64,000 bases of DNA from an uncultured delta proteobacterium (GCA_963848155.1 CAWKCL010000007.1:431002-495001), one strand, 5' to 3'. Positions 49,561 through 64,000 are shown, numbered from the stretch's first letter. Notes: generated by a model from the letters alone, not told the origin. Numbers and translations are program-made.

Positions 49561-51891
49561 TTGTGCTACAATGGGCCGATGACGAGCGCACAACCGCAGC
49601 GACACGCATATGTATCTGCCGTTACACTGGGCGGTGTATCCATTGCCGGCCAGATCGTGTTCATGCGGGAGATCATGATCCTTTTTTACGGCAATGAGCT
49701 GTCGGCCGGCGTAAGTCTCTTTTCGTGGCTCCTCTGGACTTCGCTGGGGGCCTTCATCGGCACCGCGATTGCCAGGAGAGACATCACCCGCCTCCAAACC
49801 CTCCCCACCCTGCTTCTGGCCGTTGCTGTACTGCTTCCGGCGACCGTCGTGTTTTCTCGTGTCGCAAAGACGATCGTCGGAATATCCCAGGGTGAAGTCA
49901 TCGGTATCGCCCCGATGGCGGCCATTGCCGCGGTCGTCTTTTTACCTTTCTGTTTCTTTTCGGGTCTGATCTTCCCGCTGCTCATACGGGCAGCCGTCCC
50001 CGACAGCCGAAACGACCGTGATGTCCCCTCCCGCATATACCTGTTCGAGTCCATCGGCTCATCGCTCTCTGGAACCATCACCGCGCTTGTCCTCATCCGG
50101 TATTTTGACGCGCTGACGATCGCGTTTTTTGTCGCCGCTATTGCCGGCCTGGCGGCACTGTACATCTCGGTTTCCACCCGCCGCGCCGCGGCGGCCGTTG
50201 CATCGGCCTTCGTCGTCTCCCTTTTCGTCCTTCAGCCCCTGTTTTCGATTCCCGACATCGGCGCGATCACCCGGCAGATCCAATGGAAGGGCTTCACGGT
50301 GGTCGAATCGACCGATTCCGTTTACGGAAACCTCACCGTGACGAGAGCCGAAAGCCAGACCACCGTGTACGAGAGCGGGGTGCTTTCGTTTACCTACCCG
50401 GACGTCATGAACAGCGAGCTCGGCGTGATCTATCCCCTCCTCCTCCACCCCCGCCCCGTGCGGGTGCTCCTGGTGGGCGGCGGGATATCCTCGACGCTCT
50501 CACAGATACTCAAGCACCCCTCGGTTGCAGCGATCGATTACGTGGAGCTTGACCCCGCCCTCATCGACCTCGGAATAAGAAACCTCCCTCCCGAGGCGAT
50601 CCTCCCGCTGTCGGACGGCCGGGTTCGGGTCATCCACGAGGATGGACGGCTCTTCGTACGGGAGGCCCGTGATCGGTACGACGTAATCATCGTCAACATG
50701 GCCGACCCCGTCAACGCGCGTATAAACCGCTACTTTACCCGGGAATTTTTCCGCGAGGCAAAACGGACCCTTGCCCCCGGCGGCGTCTTCTCTATCTCAG
50801 TGGGCTCATCGGAGGAGATCATCAGCCCGGTGCTTGCCTCCTTCCTTGGGAGCGTCTCCCGTACGCTGTCGTCGGTCTTCCCCCATGCGGCGGTCGTTCC
50901 GGGAGGCACCGCATTCTTCGTGGCGTCCGGTCTCCCGTCCCGGGTGGACATCGACCCCGCGGTTCTCGCCAACCGCATGAAGGATCGCGGTATCGAGAAT
51001 AGCTACGTCACCGAGCAGTACCTCCTCTATCAGTTGAATAAAGAGAGGATTGAGTACGCCCGCCGCACCGTTGAAAGCGCGAAAACGGCGGGTATCAACA
51101 CGGACCTCACTCCCACGGTCTATTACTACAATATGGTGCTGAGGAGCTACTGGCTCTCACCCGGGCTGAAAATCAAGCTGGCCTCGATTGCCGGATCACG
51201 GCCTATCCTGCCCGTGGTGGCGATTATCCTGGCGGCGTTCGTCTACGGGGGCTTTATCAGATTTCGCGCCCGGAAACCGGCCTCCCTTCCGGCGGCAACC
51301 GTCGTTCCCGCGGTGTTGACCTCCGGATTTTCCGAGATCGCACTCACCGTCGTTATCATCATCGCGTTCCAGACCTTCCGCGGCTACGTCTATTCGGCCC
51401 TCGGCCTGATCATCTCATCGTTCATGATCGGCCTTGCCATAGGGACCGGGGTCGCCCGCTCCCGGATAGGTATGTTCCCTCGCCCCTGGCGGCTCCTTGG
51501 TATCGTCCAGTCTCTCTACGGCGCCTTGTGCCTGTCGATTGTCGGCGTCCTCCTCTTCTTTTCGACGTACGGATCGGCGGGATGGCCCTGGGGACCTGCC
51601 GCCGTCTTTTCGCTCCTGAACATGCTCTGCGGGATACTCGCCGGTTTTCACTACGTCACCGCGGTGCGCTCTCTTGTTGTCTCGGGTCTCACGGCCGACG
51701 CGGGGGGGTGGGTCTACGGGATGAACCTCGCGGGCGCGGCGGGAGGGGCAATTTTCGCCTCGGTGGTCATGATACCGCTGTGGGGATTGGTGACGACCCT
51801 GCTGCTGGTGCTGGCGGCAAACCTGTGCGCTGCGGCGGTTGTCATGATCGGTGCAGGATATATCGGCGCGAATAACAAACGGCGCGGATAG
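49561..51891 (+). CDS. Membrane-embedded spermidine/spermine synthase-like protein (polytopic N- and C-terminal TM domains flanking an aminopropyltransferase-like domain)
   Basis: About 8 N-terminal TM helices. Central VLLVGGGISST...IDYVELDPALIDLG...YDVIIVNMADP spermidine-synthase/methyltransferase-like fold. Further C-terminal TM helices. Confidence 0.7.
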   Translation: MCYNGPMTSAQPQRHAYVSAVTLGGVSIAGQIVFMREIMILFYGNELSAGVSLFSWLLWTSLGAFIGTAIARRDITRLQTLPTLLLAVAVLLPATVVFSRVAKTIVGISQGEVIGIAPMAAIAAVVFLPFCFFSGLIFPLLIRAAVPDSRNDRDVPSRIYLFESIGSSLSGTITALVLIRYFDALTIAFFVAAIAGLAALYISVSTRRAAAAVASAFVVSLFVLQPLFSIPDIGAITRQIQWKGFTVVESTDSVYGNLTVTRAESQTTVYESGVLSFTYPDVMNSELGVIYPLLLHPRPVRVLLVGGGISSTLSQILKHPSVAAIDYVELDPALIDLGIRNLPPEAILPLSDGRVRVIHEDGRLFVREARDRYDVIIVNMADPVNARINRYFTREFFREAKRTLAPGGVFSISVGSSEEIISPVLASFLGSVSRTLSSVFPHAAVVPGGTAFFVASGLPSRVDIDPAVLANRMKDRGIENSYVTEQYLLYQLNKERIEYARRTVESAKTAGINTDLTPTVYYYNMVLRSYWLSPGLKIKLASIAGSRPILPVVAIILAAFVYGGFIRFRARKPASLPAATVVPAVLTSGFSEIALTVVIIIAFQTFRGYVYSALGLIISSFMIGLAIGTGVARSRIGMFPRPWRLLGIVQSLYGALCLSIVGVLLFFSTYGSAGWPWGPAAVFSLLNMLCGILAGFHYVTAVRSLVVSGLTADAGGWVYGMNLAGAAGGAIFASVVMIPLWGLVTTLLLVLAANLCAAAVVMIGAGYIGANNKRRG

Positions 51892-51928: not shown

Positions 51929-53152
51929 TCAGACGCTCTTCGGCGTCTCCCATATTCCCGCAATCGGGTACCCGCAGAATGCGCACTTTCCCTTCTTGAT
52001 CTTTACCTCGCCAACGAAGTAGCCCATCCGAAAAATAAGCGTCTTCCCACACTTCGGGCAGTAGGTGGACTCGTATTTATGGCCCGGGACGTTGCCGATA
52101 TAGACGTATTCGAGGCCGGCCTTTCGGGCGGCGGTATGCGCGGCCTCGAGCGTCTCTACCGGCGTGCTCGGGAGGTTGGTGAGCTTATACATCGGGGTGA
52201 ACCGGGAAAAATGGAGCGGCGTTTCCTTGCCGACCTTGTCCCTGATCCATACGCACATCTTCGTGATCGTCGAGATGTCATCGTTTCTGGTGGGAACCAC
52301 GAGCGTCGTAATCTCCACGTGGACGCCGGCCTTCTTGTAACCCACAATCGAGTTGAGCACCGGCGCGAGCCTCCCCTCGCTCATCGACGAATAATAGTCC
52401 TCGGAAAATCCCTTGAGGTCAATGTTGGCCGCCGTCATGTATTTGGAAAGCTCGGCCCGCGGCCCGGGGTTGATATACCCGTTTGAATGCATGACATTGA
52501 TCAAGCCGGCCTTTTTGACGGCCCTGGCGCAGTCCAGCATGTATTCGTAAAAGATCGTCGGCTCCACGTAGGTGTAGGCGACGCTGGCGGACCTCGACGA
52601 CACGGCCTCCCTTGCCAGCGCCGCCGGGCTAAGCCGGTAATTATCGGTGTTTTCCGGCCGGGCCTGGGAGATGTCGTAGTTCTGGCAGAATTTACAGGTG
52701 AGGTTGCAGCCGGCGGTGGCAATGGAATAGGACGTCGTCCCGGGAAGGCAATGAAAGAAGGGCTTTTTTTCTATGGGGTCGACGTGGATTGCGCAGGGGT
52801 TGCCCCACACGAGGCTGTAGTATTTCCCCTTCCTGTTCTCCCTGACCTCGCAGTATCCCCGTTTGCCGTCGGCCACCGTACACCCCCGGGGACAGAGAAG
52901 GCACATTACCGTTCCGTTGCCCAGCGGGGTGTAGAGTGGGGATTCCTTCGGCAGCATGTAACCCCGTTCGGGATACCCCATCTCGTCGCTGCCGTCGGAC
53001 GTCCCGATCGGCTCGGCGCAGGCCGAAAGCGGCAGGCCCGCGGCGCAATACCCCAGGGCGCAAACCGATACCCCCGCCAGGAATTCCCGCCGGGAAAACC
53101 CCCTCCCTGTTCGGCCGTTTCGATCCTCTTTACCCTTTCCAACCCCGTCCAC
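51929..53152 (-). CDS. amrS: AmmeMemoRadiSam system radical SAM enzyme (AmrS, PflA-like activase family) with an N-terminal twin-arginine-like signal
   Basis: Core MCLLCPRGCTV...GYCEVR...VDPIEKKPFFH...CNLTCKFCQN (CxxxCxxC). A 55-aa N-terminal extension contains SRREFLAGVSVCALGYCAAGLPLSACA. Confidence 0.85.
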   Translation of the reverse strand: MDGVGKGKEDRNGRTGRGFSRREFLAGVSVCALGYCAAGLPLSACAEPIGTSDGSDEMGYPERGYMLPKESPLYTPLGNGTVMCLLCPRGCTVADGKRGYCEVRENRKGKYYSLVWGNPCAIHVDPIEKKPFFHCLPGTTSYSIATAGCNLTCKFCQNYDISQARPENTDNYRLSPAALAREAVSSRSASVAYTYVEPTIFYEYMLDCARAVKKAGLINVMHSNGYINPGPRAELSKYMTAANIDLKGFSEDYYSSMSEGRLAPVLNSIVGYKKAGVHVEITTLVVPTRNDDISTITKMCVWIRDKVGKETPLHFSRFTPMYKLTNLPSTPVETLEAAHTAARKAGLEYVYIGNVPGHKYESTYCPKCGKTLIFRMGYFVGEVKIKKGKCAFCGYPIAGIWETPKSV

Positions 53153-53155
53153 GGT

Positions 53156-54655
53156 CTACTCCTCCGAGAAAGCTTCCGTCGTGAAGATATAGAGCTGGGC
53201 GTCCTTCTCTTTCCAGTCGTTCGGAAGGAGACCGGCCTTCACGCAGAGCTTTTCGAGGTACTCGTTGAGGGTCCACCCCTGCTGGACGGGAACCTCGGGA
53301 AGAAAGAGGGCACCTCCGTATCCTTTACGGATGACCGCCCCGTGCGTCCCGATAACGATCTCGTTGACACTCTTAATCGGTTTGAGTTCCGACAACACGG
53401 AGACCTCAATAGTGATATCTTTGAGCTCCGCTTTCGTCACCGGGTCGTCAGAGAATCGCAAGTCATGGACTGCCTTAAGGGCGCCAAAGGATACCGCTTC
53501 GTACAGGGGAAAGACTAGCTCAATAATACCGACGCAACCCCGTAGCTTTCCATCGTTTGTGAGGGTAACGAAAGCGCCGCGGGGCCTCGTAAGGGCCACC
53601 GAATCGCTTGTGAAATCGGGGGTCTCTTTACCCGAGAGTTCGCACTCTATGGTTCTTCGCGCGATCGAAAGGAGCTTCTTCTTATCGGTGGCCGAAAGCC
53701 CCGTTCTGGAATCGTCGCCTTCTCCCGCCGGCGGCCCTCCCCTCGCGTAGACGACCGCCGAGATGTATCCGACAACGGCATCGGTCGTCCCGGTCGCAGT
53801 CCCGCTGTCATCATACTTTGTCACAAGGACCCCCGTGGAGCCGAGGGCCCTGGCCGCGAGGAGCACCGCCACCACCGGCCCCGCCCCGCAGGCTTCCGTC
53901 TTTCGGCCGACGACGGCCTCGTACAGCCCCTTGGCGTCGTTCTTCTCGAGGAATTTCCTGAATACTCCATCAAGCGGGCGCGCTTCCGTGCGTGAATGGT
54001 AGTGCGACAGGTCCGACGAGGCGACGATCAGGACGCGTTTATCGTCGATAGACGCCGCGATCGCCCGCGCCAGCTCCTCGCACGAGGCCAGGCTGGAGCT
54101 TCCCATGACGATGGGGACAATCTTAAAATCACCGAGAACGACCTGAAGGAACGGGACCTCGACCTCCACCGAATGTTCCGGGAGGTGGGGGAGCCCGTTT
54201 TTCGTGATACGCTCGCCGTTCTTTATGATCGAGTCGATCAGATCGGTGTCCGGCGATACGTCGCCCAGAGGGGTACGGTAGGGACCGTCGGCGTATATGG
54301 CCGAGCCGTCAAACGAATAGTGGTGGCTCGGCCCGATTATAATGACGGCGTCGTAGGAGGTGCCGGCAAGGGCCGTGAAACCGGCGGCCGCCGTCGGGCC
54401 CGAATAGATATACCCTGCGTGGGGCACAATGACCGCCAGCGGCCTGCCCGGAACCGTGACTGCCGGCGATTCGGCCAGAAGATCCGTGATCATCGCCCGC
54501 AGGTCCTTCGGATCGCCGGGATAAAAGAGCCCGGCCACCGCAGGTGGCCGGGCTGTCGTCGCGTTGGAAACCTCTTCACCCGACAGGCACGCGGGGGCAA
54601 AAAGGACGAGGATAAAGAACAGGGTTAGCCGAATGGCCTTCGAGTTTCGACCCAT
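53156..54655 (-). CDS. AmmeMemoRadiSam system protein B (Memo-like) fused to protein A (AMMECR1 domain), with an N-terminal signal peptide
   Basis: Memo-like VAGLFYPGD...IVPHAGYIYSG... . C-terminal AMMECR1 motif RGAFVTLTNDGKLRGCVGIIE. N-terminus MGRNSKAIRLTLFFILVLFAPACLSG. Confidence 0.85.
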   Translation of the reverse strand: MGRNSKAIRLTLFFILVLFAPACLSGEEVSNATTARPPAVAGLFYPGDPKDLRAMITDLLAESPAVTVPGRPLAVIVPHAGYIYSGPTAAAGFTALAGTSYDAVIIIGPSHHYSFDGSAIYADGPYRTPLGDVSPDTDLIDSIIKNGERITKNGLPHLPEHSVEVEVPFLQVVLGDFKIVPIVMGSSSLASCEELARAIAASIDDKRVLIVASSDLSHYHSRTEARPLDGVFRKFLEKNDAKGLYEAVVGRKTEACGAGPVVAVLLAARALGSTGVLVTKYDDSGTATGTTDAVVGYISAVVYARGGPPAGEGDDSRTGLSATDKKKLLSIARRTIECELSGKETPDFTSDSVALTRPRGAFVTLTNDGKLRGCVGIIELVFPLYEAVSFGALKAVHDLRFSDDPVTKAELKDITIEVSVLSELKPIKSVNEIVIGTHGAVIRKGYGGALFLPEVPVQQGWTLNEYLEKLCVKAGLLPNDWKEKDAQLYIFTTEAFSEE

Positions 54656-54681: not shown

Positions 54682-54900
54682 TTAATGACAGCTGCCGCAG
54701 TGTTTCGACCCACAGCTCCCACAGCCGTCGCCCTTCGACGAGGCAACGAACTTATCGCCGCTCTTGACCGCGCAGACCGACATTTGCTTGTTCACCTCCT
54801 TAGAGGCGCACTTGGGGCAGGTAATCTCGGCACTCCTGGACATTACCAGCTCCTCGAACTCGTTGCCGCAGCCCCCGCAGACAAATTCAAATATCGGCAT
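54682..54900 (-). CDS. FmdB-family zinc-ribbon protein
   Basis: MPIFEFVCGGCGNEFEEL...ITCPKCAS pattern and a Cys-rich tail. Confidence 0.7.
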   Translation of the reverse strand: MPIFEFVCGGCGNEFEELVMSRSAEITCPKCASKEVNKQMSVCAVKSGDKFVASSKGDGCGSCGSKHCGSCH

Positions 54901-54903
54901 ATG

Positions 54904-55485
54904 CTACCTCATCGCCCAGGAGCCGTCGCCCCGTTGAATCCACCAGCCCGCGCGCGCCTGATTCTGCCAGCTGTCGGCAAAGAGGCGTTCGATCTGCGGT
55001 ATGGTATCGCCGCCGAGGCCGTTGGCCGACGCGATCTCCTGATAGAGGCGCCTGCGGTCGGCGTTGTCGGCGTCCACCAGTCCCCGGAGGCTGCCTACCG
55101 CGCCGATATCAAGTCCCCCCTGGTTCCTGATCTCCAGGTACCCGCGGTTGGATATCCCGATATTGCCGCCGTTATAGAAGGGCATGAGCTGCGGGAACCG
55201 CCCCTCCATCGAGGAACGGATGGCCCGTATGGCCGGCGTAGAGATATTGATATCGACCTGCGCCCAGGCGCTATCCACCAGCAGACCGGCAAGCCTGAAC
55301 GGAACGGTCAGGCGCCCCTCGGGTTTCGTATCCGTGGCCGGCTCCCCTCCCTTCTTGTATACGTCGTCGACGATCTCATCGGCCGCCTTTCGCACCGCTT
55401 CGGCGGGGAAATATATATTAACCGTGACGCATGCCCCGACGAGCAGCATTACCGTCAAGAGCGCGGGGATTATTTTTCTCATCAT
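54904..55485 (-). CDS. DUF1318 (YdbL-like) periplasmic protein
   Basis: Signal peptide. The C-terminus ...DRRRLYQEIASANG...FADSWQNQARAGWWIQRGDGSW matches the YdbL signature. Confidence 0.6.
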   Translation of the reverse strand: MMRKIIPALLTVMLLVGACVTVNIYFPAEAVRKAADEIVDDVYKKGGEPATDTKPEGRLTVPFRLAGLLVDSAWAQVDINISTPAIRAIRSSMEGRFPQLMPFYNGGNIGISNRGYLEIRNQGGLDIGAVGSLRGLVDADNADRRRLYQEIASANGLGGDTIPQIERLFADSWQNQARAGWWIQRGDGSWAMR

Positions 55486-55575: not shown

Positions 55576-58209
55576 CTACTTGGTCTCAATCCTGATATCT
55601 TCGGTATCCTTTACGTTTATCCGCTCCAGCCGCCGCATCATATCGTCAAAACGGATCAGGTTGTTGGGGTTTTGATTGATTACGTTGATGCCGGTAAAGC
55701 CGCTGCGCTTGATGAAATACTCGGTGTCGCCTTCGTGAATCATACCCCTGAGGGTAAAATAGTCGTTCTTGAGCTCGAGGTGAATGCCGATCGCCGAATA
55801 GTTATACTCATGGACAAATCGGTTAAGGCCCGTACGGAGCAGCCCCGAAAACAGGGTCGATCCCGATCCGAGGATGGTCAGTTTATCGACGAATTCGACG
55901 CTGACGCGCTTTTCCACTCCCCGTCTATCGACCGTCCTGATATCAAATACGAATCTCTCCGGCCCCCCGTAGGAGAAAATAAGACCGGAAATTCCGCCTT
56001 CGGCGATCCCGGTAACCCTGCCCACGTCGATCGTTTGGGTCAGCGCTCCGAGGTCGATATCGGCAAACGTCACGTCACACCCGATCCTTCGTCCCGCATC
56101 AAAGATATCCTGACCCCAAATGTTGTCGATGCGTATGGCTCCATTAAATATTTTAGCAGTAAGGGTGCCCGAAGTAAACAGCTTTTTTTCCTCGATGCCG
56201 ACCTCCGCGAGCTCGCCGGTGAGTTCGCCCTTCAGATTGACGAGCTTTTCCTTCGGGAAGATCGCCGCGATATCGATTCCTTTCACGGCCAGCGACAGGC
56301 GCATCGTTCTGTTTTCGTCGAATATATTTTCCGCCCGAACTCCACCGATCGTTACAGAGCCGCCGGCTGCCGAAACCACGACTGTATCCTTCAGGGCAAA
56401 GGCGTTTTTCTTGAGCGCCGGTAATAACGTCACCGCCCCGATATCGACCCCGCCCAGCATCGCGTGGGAAACGGTTACCTCCCCGAAGTCGCCGGGGGTA
56501 AGCTCCGGCGTTGCGTCTTTATTCGACCCGTCGGAAAGGTCGAAGGAAAACGGCATGGAAGCCGAAATCCCCTCGACCTTCGTGTTGATACCGGGGAAAT
56601 CAAGGGTAGAGCCGACGACGTCAAGCCTTCCCGAAACCCGCGGCGCCGCAAGGTTCCCCCCTACCCTGCCGGAGGAATTCAGAGAGCCGGTGACGGCGCC
56701 CGTGTATAGCCAGTCGATGCGGTTCATGAAGTAGTTTCGAAAGAGGATGTCATAGGCCGCCGCCATGTCTCGGACCCTTAAACGGTAGGAAAGATCCCCG
56801 CTCATACCGGAGCGCCCGGAATCGAGATCCCCAAAAACGTCCGCCGAGAGGACCGAGGGTATCGATACTTCGCCCATAAGATCCTTAACGCCTCCGTCGT
56901 TTTTCAGCCGGCCCGATGCCTTGACGGAGATCCGGCGTTTTTCGAAATTGACGAAGAGGCCCGAGAGGAGGAGCCCGAAATCATGGGCGGTGAGCTCGCC
57001 GTTAAAGAAGAATCCCTCCCTGATATCGTCCCTGAACTGAATCCGCGCCGACCCGGTAATACCCTGGCCCATGTAGCCCGAATCGGGAGACGAGAATCCC
57101 GCATTGACGAGATCGACTTCGAGATTGCCGGTAACGCTCCTGTCACCCGCATCGACCGTCCCCATCGTCAGGAGGCTTTTCGCCCTCCCCGTGATCCCCC
57201 ACCCGGCAAGGAATTCGGGCACATAGTCCCCGAGCCGGCGGAGGTTCGCAGACGAGAGCGTCAGGGAATCCGCCTCCGACGTAACTTTCCATTCTCCGTT
57301 ATTTTCGACCGTAAGATTCAGCAATACGTCACCAAACCGGGGCACCGAGAGGGCCGCGTCTCTCAGTATAAAGGCGCCGTCGCTTTCTTTCTCCATCTCG
57401 CCCGTGGCCGTAATCCCGTCCAGCATAAGGCCGCGCCCCTCCGCGGCTATCGAAAGGCCGTCGATCGAGACGTCCGTCGCTTTGACGGTACCAGGGTCAA
57501 ACCGTATGTGCGCCGCAACGTGTTCGCCCGCGAACGTAAAGTTCCCGATCCGATACCCCGACTCTCCCATCCTGACCGTACCCCGTGCAGAAACGTCCGG
57601 ATAGGTTCCCATAATACGCATCCGGGCGTAAAACGGCCCATCGAGCAGCGGGCCTTTGCTTATCCCTTCCGTCCGCGCCGATCCGGCAACCGTGAGGGAC
57701 GCGCCCACGATACCGTGCTCGTAGCTCATATCTATGCCCTTGAAGACGTAGCGCCCGGACGTGCCGATGAGGAGGAGTTCACCGTTTTCGACGGTGATAT
57801 CCAGCTCCATCATCCTCTGGATGAGACGCTCCCCGTCGCCTCCACCCTTACGTGATACGTCCAGGGATATCGAAGGATTGCGGACGGTGATTTTTTTTAT
57901 TTTTAGTGGGGTTCTTAAGCCGAGGCGAAACTCCAGTACCGCCGGGCCGGAAGAAAAGACGACCGGGCCGGTCACCAGGTCCATGCCTTCCACGATTATC
58001 GCGCCGGGAGAAACCAGCCGTATCCCGGTCAGATACACCCGGTAGCCGACGGTTCGTTCGACGACACGCCTGACCGCGTCGCCGATCAGTTCGTCTCCGA
58101 AATAGTAGTAGAAGACCGATATCGCCGTTAGCGACCCGAAGAAAACGGTCAGACAGCAGATCCAGATGATCCGGGCAAGGCGGGTCTTTTTCAGTAACCT
58201 CCTGGACAT
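55576..58209 (-). CDS. YdbH-like AsmA-family protein (large periplasm-spanning, putative phospholipid transport)
   Basis: 877 aa (E. coli YdbH is 879 aa). N-terminal TM anchor, long beta-rich body, followed by the DUF1318 gene as in the ydbH-ynbE-ydbL locus. Confidence 0.65.
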   Translation of the reverse strand: MSRRLLKKTRLARIIWICCLTVFFGSLTAISVFYYYFGDELIGDAVRRVVERTVGYRVYLTGIRLVSPGAIIVEGMDLVTGPVVFSSGPAVLEFRLGLRTPLKIKKITVRNPSISLDVSRKGGGDGERLIQRMMELDITVENGELLLIGTSGRYVFKGIDMSYEHGIVGASLTVAGSARTEGISKGPLLDGPFYARMRIMGTYPDVSARGTVRMGESGYRIGNFTFAGEHVAAHIRFDPGTVKATDVSIDGLSIAAEGRGLMLDGITATGEMEKESDGAFILRDAALSVPRFGDVLLNLTVENNGEWKVTSEADSLTLSSANLRRLGDYVPEFLAGWGITGRAKSLLTMGTVDAGDRSVTGNLEVDLVNAGFSSPDSGYMGQGITGSARIQFRDDIREGFFFNGELTAHDFGLLLSGLFVNFEKRRISVKASGRLKNDGGVKDLMGEVSIPSVLSADVFGDLDSGRSGMSGDLSYRLRVRDMAAAYDILFRNYFMNRIDWLYTGAVTGSLNSSGRVGGNLAAPRVSGRLDVVGSTLDFPGINTKVEGISASMPFSFDLSDGSNKDATPELTPGDFGEVTVSHAMLGGVDIGAVTLLPALKKNAFALKDTVVVSAAGGSVTIGGVRAENIFDENRTMRLSLAVKGIDIAAIFPKEKLVNLKGELTGELAEVGIEEKKLFTSGTLTAKIFNGAIRIDNIWGQDIFDAGRRIGCDVTFADIDLGALTQTIDVGRVTGIAEGGISGLIFSYGGPERFVFDIRTVDRRGVEKRVSVEFVDKLTILGSGSTLFSGLLRTGLNRFVHEYNYSAIGIHLELKNDYFTLRGMIHEGDTEYFIKRSGFTGINVINQNPNNLIRFDDMMRRLERINVKDTEDIRIETK

Positions 58210-61188: not shown

Positions 61189-62145
61189 TTACGCGGCACG
61201 GAACGTCACATACCTGTCATTCCGTCCGATTCTCGCCCGACGGCTGTTCAGTGGCGCGGGTGCCTTTCCGCTCTCCTCTTGCCGCCATTCCTTTGCCCTG
61301 AATTCGGAGAGGATGATCCCCGTAAGGATCAGCGCGGCCCCGATATACCCCCGGCTCCCGAGCACCTCTCCCCCCCACCAGAAGGCGAATATCGCCGCGA
61401 AGACCGGCTCCATCGTGAAGATAACCGCGGCCCGCGTGGGGGACGTATATTGCTGCGCCCAGGTCTGAACGGTGAAGTTGAAGGCGGTCGCAAAGATCGC
61501 CAGAAAAATAATTGCACCGATCACGTACCCGGACAATGCGTGGGGCGCCTCGCCGATGGTTACGGCCGACACCCCCGCCCACGTCGTCATCGCAACCATC
61601 TGGGCTATCGCCACCAGGTAAACGTCGTGCTTGACCGCGTACCACCCCGTCAGGATCACGTGGAACGCCACGCTCACCGCACAGGCGATCACCCAGACGT
61701 CTCCCCGATTGATCGAGAAATCGTCTCCCACCGTCAACAGGAAGAGACCCGCCGCGCTGATCACCGCCCCGATCGCGGCGGTCGCGGCGGGCATCTTTCT
61801 GAAGAAGATCGCGAGGATAAAGGGGACGAGGATCACGTGCAGCCCCGTGATGAACCCCGCGTTAGAGGCCGACGTGTATTTGAGGCCTATCGTCTGCAGG
61901 ACAAAGGCGGAAAAGAGGACCGAGCCCAGGATGAATCCGTCCCGAAAGGAGTGCGGAGTAAACCGCCTGAGCCGCCGGAAAAAGACGGCCAACAGTATAA
62001 CCGTTGCCAGGGAAAAACGCAGGAAGAGGAACCAGTAGAGGTCAAGCTCCGTGATGGCCGTCTTGACCATAATAAACGACATCCCCCAGAAGAGGCAGAT
62101 GAGAACGAGCATCAGATCGGCAATGACGCCCTTTTTGGTCGTCAT
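61189..62145 (-). CDS. DMT superfamily (EamA-like) transporter
   Basis: 10 TM helices and two EamA repeats. Start taken at MTTKKG. Confidence 0.8.
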   Translation of the reverse strand: MTTKKGVIADLMLVLICLFWGMSFIMVKTAITELDLYWFLFLRFSLATVILLAVFFRRLRRFTPHSFRDGFILGSVLFSAFVLQTIGLKYTSASNAGFITGLHVILVPFILAIFFRKMPAATAAIGAVISAAGLFLLTVGDDFSINRGDVWVIACAVSVAFHVILTGWYAVKHDVYLVAIAQMVAMTTWAGVSAVTIGEAPHALSGYVIGAIIFLAIFATAFNFTVQTWAQQYTSPTRAAVIFTMEPVFAAIFAFWWGGEVLGSRGYIGAALILTGIILSEFRAKEWRQEESGKAPAPLNSRRARIGRNDRYVTFRAA

Positions 62146-62160
62146 GTGAAACCCCGGGCT

Positions 62161-62195
62161 AAAAGGTAAAAGAAAAGGGGCACTTCTCATGCCCC
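62161..62195 (-). terminator. Rho-independent terminator after ahcY
   Basis: GGGGCA-cttctca-TGCCCC hairpin (62177..62195) followed on the minus strand by a U-rich tract. Confidence 0.55.
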
Positions 62196-62242: not shown

Positions 62243-63556
<1,314 letters not shown>

Positions 63557-63649: not shown

Positions 63650-64000
63650 CTATACGCCGGCCGCCTTCTTGAGCCGCTTGACCATATCGACCGTTTCCCA
63701 GGTAAAACCGCCTTCTTCCCTTCCGAAGTGGCCGTAGGCTGCCGTTTGCCGGTATTTCGGCTTGAGCAGGTCGAGCTGTTCGATTATGGCCGCGGGCCGA
63801 AAATCAAACTCCTCCTGAATTATCCGGGCAATCTGATCGGGCGGTATGACGCTGGTACCATCGGTGTTTATCATAAAGGAAACCGGTTCGGCCTTTCCAA
63901 TCGCATAGGCAACCTGGACTTCGCACCGTTTCGCAAGTCCCGCCGCCACGATGTTCTTGGCGACATAGCGCGCCATGTAGGAGCCGGAGCGGTCGACCTT
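63650..64000 (-). CDS. metK: S-adenosylmethionine synthetase, C-terminal part (gene continues beyond the window end)
   Basis: ...[23 protein letters not shown]...TAAYGHFGR...FTWE matches the MetK C-terminus. The frame is open to position 64000. Confidence 0.85.

Follow-up and report, generated by a model that had tools for sequence, protein, structure and literature searches.

The 64,000-nucleotide stretch of DNA analyzed here (the window; CAWKCL010000007.1:431002-495001 of GCA_963848155.1, from an uncultured delta proteobacterium) has a GC content of ~60% and carries two adjacent genes, amrBA and amrS, which are located 3 nt apart on one strand and together encode all three components of the AmmeMemoRadiSam system: the Memo protein AmrB, the AMMECR1 protein AmrA, and the radical S-adenosylmethionine (SAM) enzyme AmrS. 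Both open reading frames (ORFs) had been proposed, with their coordinates on the minus strand, in an earlier interpretation of the DNA alone (the sequence-only reading) and were confirmed (Table 1). Since AmrS begins with a conserved, predicted twin-arginine translocation (Tat) signal and its Memo-AMMECR1 partner with a predicted secretion signal, the chemistry of this system, which has been assumed to be confined to the cytoplasm, probably takes place outside the cell membrane in a large and so far overlooked bacterial group.

The amrBA-amrS gene pair and its predicted signal peptides

AmrS matched the family model TIGR04337 with 364 bits (cut-off 220; residues 77-403) and also the Pfam family Radical_SAM (PF04055). 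Besides the radical SAM motif, its core holds an N-terminal C84/C87/C91/C101 motif and a C-terminal CxxC...CxxC ribbon, and the cluster-binding cysteines, including C149/C153/C156, were invariant in an alignment of 100 sequences that comprised exported and cytoplasmic homologues. A sequence search of the PDB with AmrS yielded no match at E ≤ 0.001, and therefore a fold search was used. The AlphaFold2 (AF2) model of AmrS (pLDDT 93, confident from about residue 65 onward) found its best match in PflA (3cb8; TMt 0.83, root-mean-square deviation 2.4 Å, 18% identity), which agrees with the PflA-like radical SAM enzyme recognized in the sequence-only reading. AmrS scored below the cut-offs of the glycyl-radical activase models (TIGR02493, 41.2 vs 231.75 bits; TIGR02494, 25.3 vs 174.35 bits), and no cognate glycyl-radical enzyme is encoded nearby, the neighbors being Memo-AMMECR1, a zinc ribbon protein, a DUF1318 protein, an 877-aa protein, a SpeE-like protein, and LeuRS.

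Since the TIGR04337 match starts only at residue 77, AmrS has ~70 residues ahead of the part covered by the family model. This N-terminus consists, in this order, of MDGVGKGKEDRNGRTGRGF, SRREFL, AGVSVCALGYCAAGLPLS, ACA, and EPIG, and all elements of the twin-arginine signal described previously (motif, hydrophobic h-region, and AxA site) were thus found. The extension is in-frame, as had been stated, and looks translated; its given length of 55 residues counts to the internal Met58, whereas the predicted signal peptide comprises ~46 aa. In the Tat motif an Ala replaces the consensus Lys at the last position of S/T-R-R-x-F-L-K, and the h-region is weakly hydrophobic, with a best 12-residue Kyte-Doolittle (KD) mean of 1.83 vs 2.75 for the signal of AmrBA. 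Since the AF2 model contains only a lone helix (residues 21-37) and lower-confidence coil (~38-60) in this part, residues 1-60 are, according to the model, not part of the fold. A pattern composed of [ST]RRxF[LIVM], at least 14 uncharged residues, and AxA had a single match, the AmrS site itself, when the window was translated in all six frames, and ≤0.02 matches in shuffled sequence.

The product of amrBA is a Memo-AMMECR1 fusion, as had been recognized before: the Memo part scored 268.8 bits with TIGR04336 (cut-off 26) and 218.5 bits with PF01875, the AMMECR1 part 147.9 bits with TIGR04335 (cut-off 99) and 151.2 bits with PF01871, and relatives in the PDB are MEMO1 and PH0010. Its N-terminus reads MGRNSKAIRLTLFFILVLFAPAC followed by LSGEE. 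Of the 15 closest homologues, 14 have the residue Cys23, and homologues at a greater distance include some with canonical lipoboxes. When 120 homologous fusion proteins were taken with their start sites as called, a signal was present in 86, 35 of them with a lipobox-like site. In a set of loci from 80 species-level GTDB genomes, for which the upstream in-frame AmrS sequence was taken from the DNA, a Memo-AMMECR1 gene lies beside AmrS in 38. Three of these genes are interrupted by a contig end or frameshift; all 35 readable partner N-termini start with a signal-like hydrophobic segment, often with a lipobox cysteine. Four “signal-less” fusions were checked in the DNA, and in three the start site had been miscalled, as the reading frame continues upstream into a signal or lipobox; none of the four, examined for covariation with signal-less AmrS, has an adjacent AmrS. 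Dual starts on Memo-AMMECR1 fusions may give rise to exported and cytoplasmic isoforms. Many fusions are called from an internal Met that follows a GAGG-rich linker, which masks an in-frame upstream signal or lipobox (L082:4881-5000, L083, and L084). Within the amrBA coding sequence of the window, shortly 3' of the signal-peptide codons, lies a hairpin of 12 perfectly matched base pairs, 10 of them G-C, with CTTTTAT behind it (54528-54554, minus strand); this hairpin may have arisen by chance from the codons used, or it may serve as an attenuator.

Conservation of the AmrS signal and its possible provision in trans

The 120 best AmrS homologues were collected from 5.8 billion proteins (55-86% identity), and nearly all of them span the extension. 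The assembly index has no record of the exact AmrS protein of the window. The motif [RK]R-x-F-L is in place in 118 of these closest homologues (85 RR, 33 KR). The column consensus is L-(S/T)-(R/K)-R-x-F-L-K followed by a weakly hydrophobic stretch, and in the N-termini inspected the h-region is usually succeeded by a small-x-small site such as AxA; close homologues retain ACAEPIG or a variant of it after the h-region. Among the GTDB loci, an RR/KR signal on AmrS was present in Thermodesulfobacteriota, Zixibacteria, Acidobacteriota, Aminicenantes, Eisenbacteria, Latescibacterota, Ignavibacteriota, Bacteroidota, Verrucomicrobiota, Kiritimatiellae, and Poribacteria, and at the protein level the motif persists across phyla in proteins with as little as 38-45% identity. 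The predicted exported form of AmrS is also encoded in two cultured species, Desulfoferrobacter suflitae DRH4 (L011) and Dethiosulfatarculus sandiegensis SPR (L024). In the closest GTDB genome, L037 (89% identity), the genes for Memo-AMMECR1, the zinc ribbon, and AmrS contain apparent frameshifts and stops, probably as a result of errors in the long-read assembly.

The sequence-only reading had itself considered that, the DNA being GC-rich, the extension could be an open frame that is not translated and lies upstream of the real start at an internal Met (MGYPERGYM). Long spurious frames are common at the GC content of the window, and amrS and the upstream amrBA share a reading frame. The GTG at 53152 is, however, the first in-frame start, only 3 nt past the amrBA stop codon, and a strong Shine-Dalgarno (SD) sequence precedes it. 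In the L081 locus, whose AmrS is 82% identical, an ATG with its own SD sequence is found at the position homologous to this GTG, and since the L081 spacer of 4 nt places amrS in a different frame relative to amrBA, the shared frame in the window is incidental. Read-through from amrBA into amrS by way of the shared frame was rejected on the same grounds. Because Met58 is Ile in relatives, there is no conserved internal start either, and a comparison with orthologues that might begin at this Met without the extension gave the opposite picture, the motif being retained as described above. As homologues keep the motif across phyla while the internal Met is not conserved, and the full pattern is so rare in shuffled sequence, a reading-frame artefact is exceedingly improbable and was rejected.

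For a broader view of the family, 1.84 billion representatives were searched with HMMER, which gave 1399 AmrS matches at E ≤ 1e-30. The best 150 were taken, 137 of which had a recognizable core and were classified as short canonical forms without N-terminal extension (n = 90), forms with RR signals (~24), forms with hydrophobic signals lacking RR (~6), and long N-terminal fusions beginning with a hydrophobic segment (n = 10). In a crude neighbor-joining tree of the 137 cores, signal-bearing and fused forms made up ~40 of the ~44 leaves of one part, and the signal-less forms were located elsewhere. By these sequence comparisons, signal-bearing AmrS is one large clade that accounts for ~30% of the diverse representatives sampled, and the predicted Tat-type extension marks this clade and is not peculiar to the present genome. 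A separate group of long proteins of ~900-1150 aa (P0300, P0304, P0312, P0321, P0336, P0343, P0346, and others) has an N-terminal AmrS-like radical SAM domain with the motif WWH...CDLCPRxC...FCFVR, followed by ~700 uncharacterized residues.

Five loci encode an AmrS without a signal: L022, L032, L038, and L057, which belong to the Thermodesulfovibrionales and relatives, and L055. Their AmrS proteins begin at MPKTVQCELCP with stop codons upstream, and the Memo-AMMECR1 partner retains its lipoprotein signal in all of them. In exactly these five loci, and in no others of the set, a mini-ORF of 41-50 aa is located between amrS and amrBA. Its product begins with M-x-RR-x-F-L and an h-region, continues with a linker that is Lys-rich in all but one of the five, and ends in the tail KEAMFWRKLD, which reads KEASFYRQADDLAG in L055; an example is MKRRAFLRIFLLGIILAMSGKKVKAENKPETKPKEAMFWRKLD. 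The tail corresponds to the first beta-strand of canonical AmrS (MKEAMFY...), which is missing from the five AmrS proteins, and it supplies positions 2-10 of the TIGR04337 model: when mini-ORF and AmrS fragment were combined, the start of the alignment moved from model position 11 to 2 and the score rose from 45.9 to 49.6 bits. From this arrangement we infer that the mini-ORF would provide a Tat signal in trans, docking onto AmrS by strand complementation. The presence of a Tat mini-ORF precisely where AmrS has no signal of its own argues that Tat targeting is maintained by selection in the signal-bearing clade.

Domain fusions, gene neighborhoods, and the predicted site of action

Further indications come from relatives in which AmrS is fused to other domains. 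In P0252 a signal or single N-terminal helix is followed by an FMN_bind domain with the ApbE flavinylation motif D-x-x-[ST]-G-A-T and by AmrS (Pfam assignments); the related P0262 likewise has a single N-terminal helix ahead of FMN_bind and AmrS, with no match to the ApbE motif. P0243 and P0251 consist of FMN_bind, a NapH/NosR-like Fer4_5 membrane region, and AmrS, and P0270 of DsbD_2, FMN_bind, Fer4_5, and one extra transmembrane helix directly ahead of AmrS. Altogether, four FMN_bind domains of AmrS fusions contain the ApbE motif. DsbD_2 is joined to AmrS in P0253, P0264, and many others. A signal precedes a beta-propeller (Reg_prop/PorZ-type) and AmrS in P0244, and a CBM_11 carbohydrate-binding module and AmrS in P0250; the latter two fusions hint at a glycan or envelope substrate. 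Memo, AMMECR1, and AmrS form a single polypeptide, in either order and with one N-terminal hydrophobic segment, in L059:4564-6868 (Planctomycetota), P0256, and P0268.

Similar modules recur as separate genes next to amrS. A DUF362 gene with a Tat signal is present in 20 of the 80 GTDB loci (directly 5' of amrS in the 14 loci of its ORF cluster), a DsbD_2 membrane protein is encoded directly 3' of amrS in Omnitrophota (9-13 loci), and a NapH-like polyferredoxin gene is located 5' of amrS in Desulfobaccales and others (8-10 loci). In the operon of L088, DsbD_2/Fer4_5 is followed by FMN_bind-AmrS and then by a homologue of the 776-aa membrane protein of the window. Because of shadow ORFs in GC-rich DNA, all-against-all clustering of the stop-to-stop ORFs around AmrS was noisy, and only clusters backed by Pfam and tblastn were kept. 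FMN_bind/NapH-like and DsbD modules have been described or proposed as an electron route to extracytosolic enzymes (Meheust et al., 2021; PMC8238504). Radical SAM enzymes, Memo, and AMMECR1 do not figure in the main text of the survey.

The most conserved neighbor of AmrS is the 776-aa polytopic protein with a spermidine-synthase-like (SpeE-like) domain, whose gene in the window is convergent with amrS at a distance of 37 nt and matches NF037959 (“fused MFS/spermidine synthase”). A homologue lies beside AmrS in 43 of the 80 GTDB loci across phyla, also in L088 and L082, and is thus more frequent there than Memo-AMMECR1 (43/80 vs 38/80). According to our own reading of the sequence its glycine loop is GGGISS; true aminopropyltransferases have GGGDGG. 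By a crude positive-inside count, the soluble domain and the loops rich in K/R are on different sides of the membrane in 36 of 39 homologues, which is no more than suggestive of an outward-facing Rossmann domain. Elsewhere in the window, an EamA/DMT-family transporter gene (61189-62190, minus strand) is located directly 3' of ahcY (62243-63556) and the 3' end of metK (63650-63976) on the same strand, an arrangement shared with L081. DMT transporters include rickettsial and chlamydial SAM carriers, and by analogy the transporter beside metK-ahcY could be linked to the traffic of SAM and S-adenosylhomocysteine.

The gene pair itself ends a same-strand block that comprises, in this order, the genes of the 877-aa N-terminally anchored protein, the DUF1318 protein, the 72-aa FmdB-type zinc ribbon protein, AmrBA, and AmrS, with gaps of 90, 3, 26, and 3 nt; the same five-gene order is found in L081. 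The setting of the amrBA-amrS block is envelope-related. The DUF1318 gene stops 3 nt before the zinc-ribbon gene, which in turn stops 26 nt 5' of amrBA and is probably co-transcribed with it. Since a zinc ribbon gene of this type adjoins the AmmeMemoRadiSam system in three loci only (L081, L037, and L086), it was treated as lineage-specific and rejected as a core fourth component or substrate. L086 has a second Zn_ribbon_8 gene (112 aa) that overlaps the amrS start. The 877-aa protein, which may be YdbH-like, has no Pfam or NCBIfam match. LptE and MurJ are encoded nearby in the L081 context. A promoter and terminator scan of the operon gave no more than was obtained with shuffles.

Table 1. 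Coordinates of the features discussed, in the window or, where a locus is named, in the related locus.
Feature	Position	Strand	Basis or remark
776-aa polytopic membrane protein, central spermidine-synthase-like Rossmann domain	49561..51891	+	PF01564 92 bits, NF037959 71.5 bits
amrS, AmmeMemoRadiSam radical SAM enzyme precursor, 407 aa, GTG start	51929..53152	-	TIGR04337, PF04055
Mature AmrS catalytic core, residues 77-403	51944..52924	-	TIGR04337 alignment
Radical SAM motif C149-x3-C153-x2-C156	52685-52708	-	intact
Predicted twin-arginine signal peptide, AmrS residues 1-46 (n-region, SRREFL, h-region, A-C-A)	53015..53152	-	
A44-C45-A46, likely signal peptidase I site, cleavage before E47	53015..53023	-	
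Tat consensus motif S20-R21-R22-E23-F24-L25	53078..53095	-	sequence and homologue consensus
Shine-Dalgarno sequence GGAGGAG, 6 nt 5' of amrS GTG	53159..53165	-	read from sequence
amrBA, Memo (AmrB, residues 36-302) and AMMECR1 (AmrA, residues 327-496), 499 aa	53156..54655	-	
Predicted Sec-type or lipoprotein-like signal peptide of AmrBA, residues 1-22, then Cys23	54590..54655	-	
72-aa FmdB-type zinc-ribbon protein, Cys-rich C-terminal tail CGSCGSKHCGSCH	54682..54900	-	TIGR02605 49.4 bits
DUF1318 (YdbL-like) protein with N-terminal signal	54904..55485	-	PF07027 59.9 bits
877-aa N-terminally anchored protein, first gene of same-strand block	55576..58209	-	conserved in L081
Mini-ORF, L022	L022:4813-4947	+	
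Mini-ORF, L032	L032:7032-7166	+	
Mini-ORF, L038	L038:7144-7275	+	
Mini-ORF, L057	L057:3490-3615	+	
Mini-ORF, L055	L055:7046-7198	+	

Judged from sequence comparison, the operon probably encodes an extracytoplasmic version of the AmmeMemoRadiSam system, with AmrS exported via Tat and Memo-AMMECR1 via Sec. AmrS would be made with a cleavable twin-arginine signal peptide, fold and acquire its iron-sulfur (Fe-S) clusters, possibly also SAM, in the cytoplasm, and then be carried in the folded state to the periplasm by the Tat translocase. The Memo-AMMECR1 fusion would be exported unfolded through Sec and, on the outer side of the inner membrane, probably be held by a lipid anchor or set free. At this site the PflA-like AmrS would employ a 5'-deoxyadenosyl radical to act on a substrate that it handles jointly with Memo/AMMECR1, the most plausible candidates being a protein, lipid, or glycan located in the envelope. 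Export, signal cleavage, the electron donor at this locus, the SAM source, and the substrate are the elements of this scheme that we infer. The extracytoplasmic location predicted in the sequence-only reading is supported by the partner signals, the fusions to external domains and redox modules, and the Tat mini-genes in trans.

Several observations have to be weighed against export by this route. With the curated TAT model TIGR01409 (cut-off 16.7 bits) the AmrS peptide of the window reached 13.7 bits; two AmrS orthologues pass at 17.0 and 17.4 bits, and the N-termini of two others gave no match. The Sec/lipoprotein-like signal attributed earlier to the fusion holds with respect to its hydrophobicity, but the lipobox is atypical (F-A-P-A-C23, with Pro at -2, outside the usual [LVI]-[ASTVI]-[GAS]-C). 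No redox module adjoins amrS or amrBA in this window, and neither tatA nor tatC was recognized by eye among the window ORFs, which were not scanned with the family models for these. SAM and low-potential reductants are not known to be at hand in the periplasm. In P0252 and P0256 more positive charge is found after the N-terminal helix than before it, a bias that would favor a cytoplasmic orientation of these proteins. Finally, AmrS of the Omnitrophota and some fusions have very hydrophobic, Sec-like signals without RR (mean h-region KD 3.04 in Omnitrophota, compared with 1.70 for RR-type AmrS). Since AmrS is an Fe-S enzyme that needs maturation, such a signal is hard to reconcile with export, and the Omnitrophota signals better fit a membrane anchor, or export of the apo-protein with DsbD_2 as helper, than classical Tat export. 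Sec-like AmrS signals without RR were recorded in L015, L019, L025-L028, L030, L033, L034, L041, L042, L052, L053, L056, L061, and L066 (Omnitrophota and a few unclassified metagenome-assembled genomes), often with a DsbD_2 membrane-protein gene after amrS.

An uncleaved anchor has also been considered for AmrS in general. Its N-terminal segment would be inserted by Tat (or, where RR is lacking, by Sec/signal recognition particle) and tether the enzyme to the outer face of the cytoplasmic membrane, in a position like that of Rieske proteins and beside the lipid-anchored Memo-AMMECR1 and the polytopic SpeE-like protein. The mini-ORFs lack an AxA site and have a basic linker after the helix, the N-terminal helices of Omnitrophota forms and many fusions are long and very hydrophobic, the extra transmembrane helix of P0270 directly precedes the AmrS domain, and every conserved partner is a membrane protein. 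An A-x-A site (ACAEP), however, follows a short and weak h-region both in the window and in close relatives, as is typical of cleaved Tat signals, and we therefore regard both a permanent anchor and the Rieske-like placement as rather unlikely.

Still less likely is a cytoplasmic AmrS whose RR segment would be a remnant serving membrane targeting or chaperone binding, as in NarG, and which would modify its substrate, be it the precursor of Memo-AMMECR1 or a different one, prior to export. It is in keeping with the cytoplasmic location of SAM and reductant as generally known, with the five lineages that have no cis signal beside a lipoprotein-type partner, with the expectation that Sec-like signals would not function in the export of an Fe-S enzyme, and with the ambiguous charge bias of some fusions. 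Against it, the full functional Tat consensus is preserved in 118 of the 120 homologues, whereas vestigial signals degenerate; the signal-less lineages hold an RR signal in trans that is joined to a strand of AmrS; and fusions behind one N-terminal signal group AmrS with FMN_bind (flavinylatable), beta-propeller, and CBM_11 domains, which are normally external.

Beyond the probable export in this operon, a more comprehensive picture can be drawn tentatively, which is possible but doubtful as a whole. A complete SAM-radical module would operate outside the cytoplasm in many anaerobic phyla, with AmrS brought there by Tat, by the trans-acting mini-protein, or possibly as a Sec-exported apo-protein with DsbD_2. 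Electrons would arrive via NapH/NosR-like, FMN_bind, or DsbD_2 modules, SAM supply or by-product removal would be the task of the SpeE-like protein, and an envelope molecule would be modified together with lipid-anchored Memo-AMMECR1.

Relation to known systems

The function of the Memo/AMMECR1/radical SAM trio has been unknown for two decades, and it has human homologues linked to disease. To our knowledge, radical SAM enzymes are regarded as strictly cytoplasmic in view of their requirement for SAM, for Fe-S clusters that are sensitive to oxygen, and for an electron donor of very low potential, and we know of none described as a Tat substrate. Existing annotation names give no clue to export: NCBI names even the AmrS fusion proteins “AmmeMemoRadiSam system radical SAM enzyme”, and gene calls of Memo-AMMECR1 often hide the signal. 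A full-text literature search, whose scope did not include the comparative study by Burroughs et al. of 2019 (which reportedly treats Memo-AMMECR1-radical SAM contexts and may mention signal peptides), returned no export signals on AmrS, AmrB, or AmrA and no Tat-targeted radical SAM enzyme. A clade apparently built for export raises testable questions about the route of SAM to the periplasm, the reduction of clusters there, and the envelope substrate; it narrows the search for the function of the trio toward a membrane- or envelope-associated substrate and adds the polytopic spermidine-synthase-like protein as a new, obligatory-looking partner. If true, a SAM-radical module outside the cytoplasm would be the first handle on the function of Memo and AMMECR1, a pair conserved up to humans, and experiments are feasible since two cultured species carry the exported form.

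The predicted exported form resembles the canonical AmmeMemoRadiSam system in that all three families score above their cut-offs, the genes are adjacent, and the cluster cysteines are invariant. Canonical AmrS, in contrast, has 325-360 aa, starts ~10 residues before CxxCxxxC, and lacks a signal, whereas AmrS of the window has a predicted Tat signal; in addition, AmrB and AmrA are here fused behind a Sec/lipoprotein-type signal, and the exported clade is tied to membrane redox modules and the SpeE-like membrane protein. With PflA (3cb8), AmrS shares the fold and the CxxxCxxC radical SAM core, and by analogy it may abstract hydrogen from a protein or peptide-bound substrate. PflA is cytoplasmic, however, and AmrS adds the N-terminal four-Cys motif and the C-terminal zinc ribbon. 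With the glycyl-radical activases in general only the fold is common, with scores below the cut-offs of the family models.

The predicted export signal has its counterparts in Tat-dependent Fe-S proteins such as NapG, NrfC, and HybA, which likewise combine S/T-R-R-x-F-L-K, a weak h-region, and AxA, and receive their clusters before transport. The mini-ORF arrangement of the five relatives is similar to hitchhiker export, in which the hydrogenase small subunit carries the large one, but a protein of ~45 aa that gives only a signal and one beta-strand is not a described design of such systems. NapH/NosR-like, FMN_bind, and DsbD-type systems are fused or adjacent to AmrS in relatives, whereas the genes of the window have no such module. 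Anaerobic sulfatase-maturing enzymes (anSME; AtsB) are comparable in that a radical SAM enzyme has an exported client protein. These enzymes have no signal peptide and act in the cytoplasm on Sec-exported sulfatases before export of the latter, whereas AmrS itself carries the export signal.

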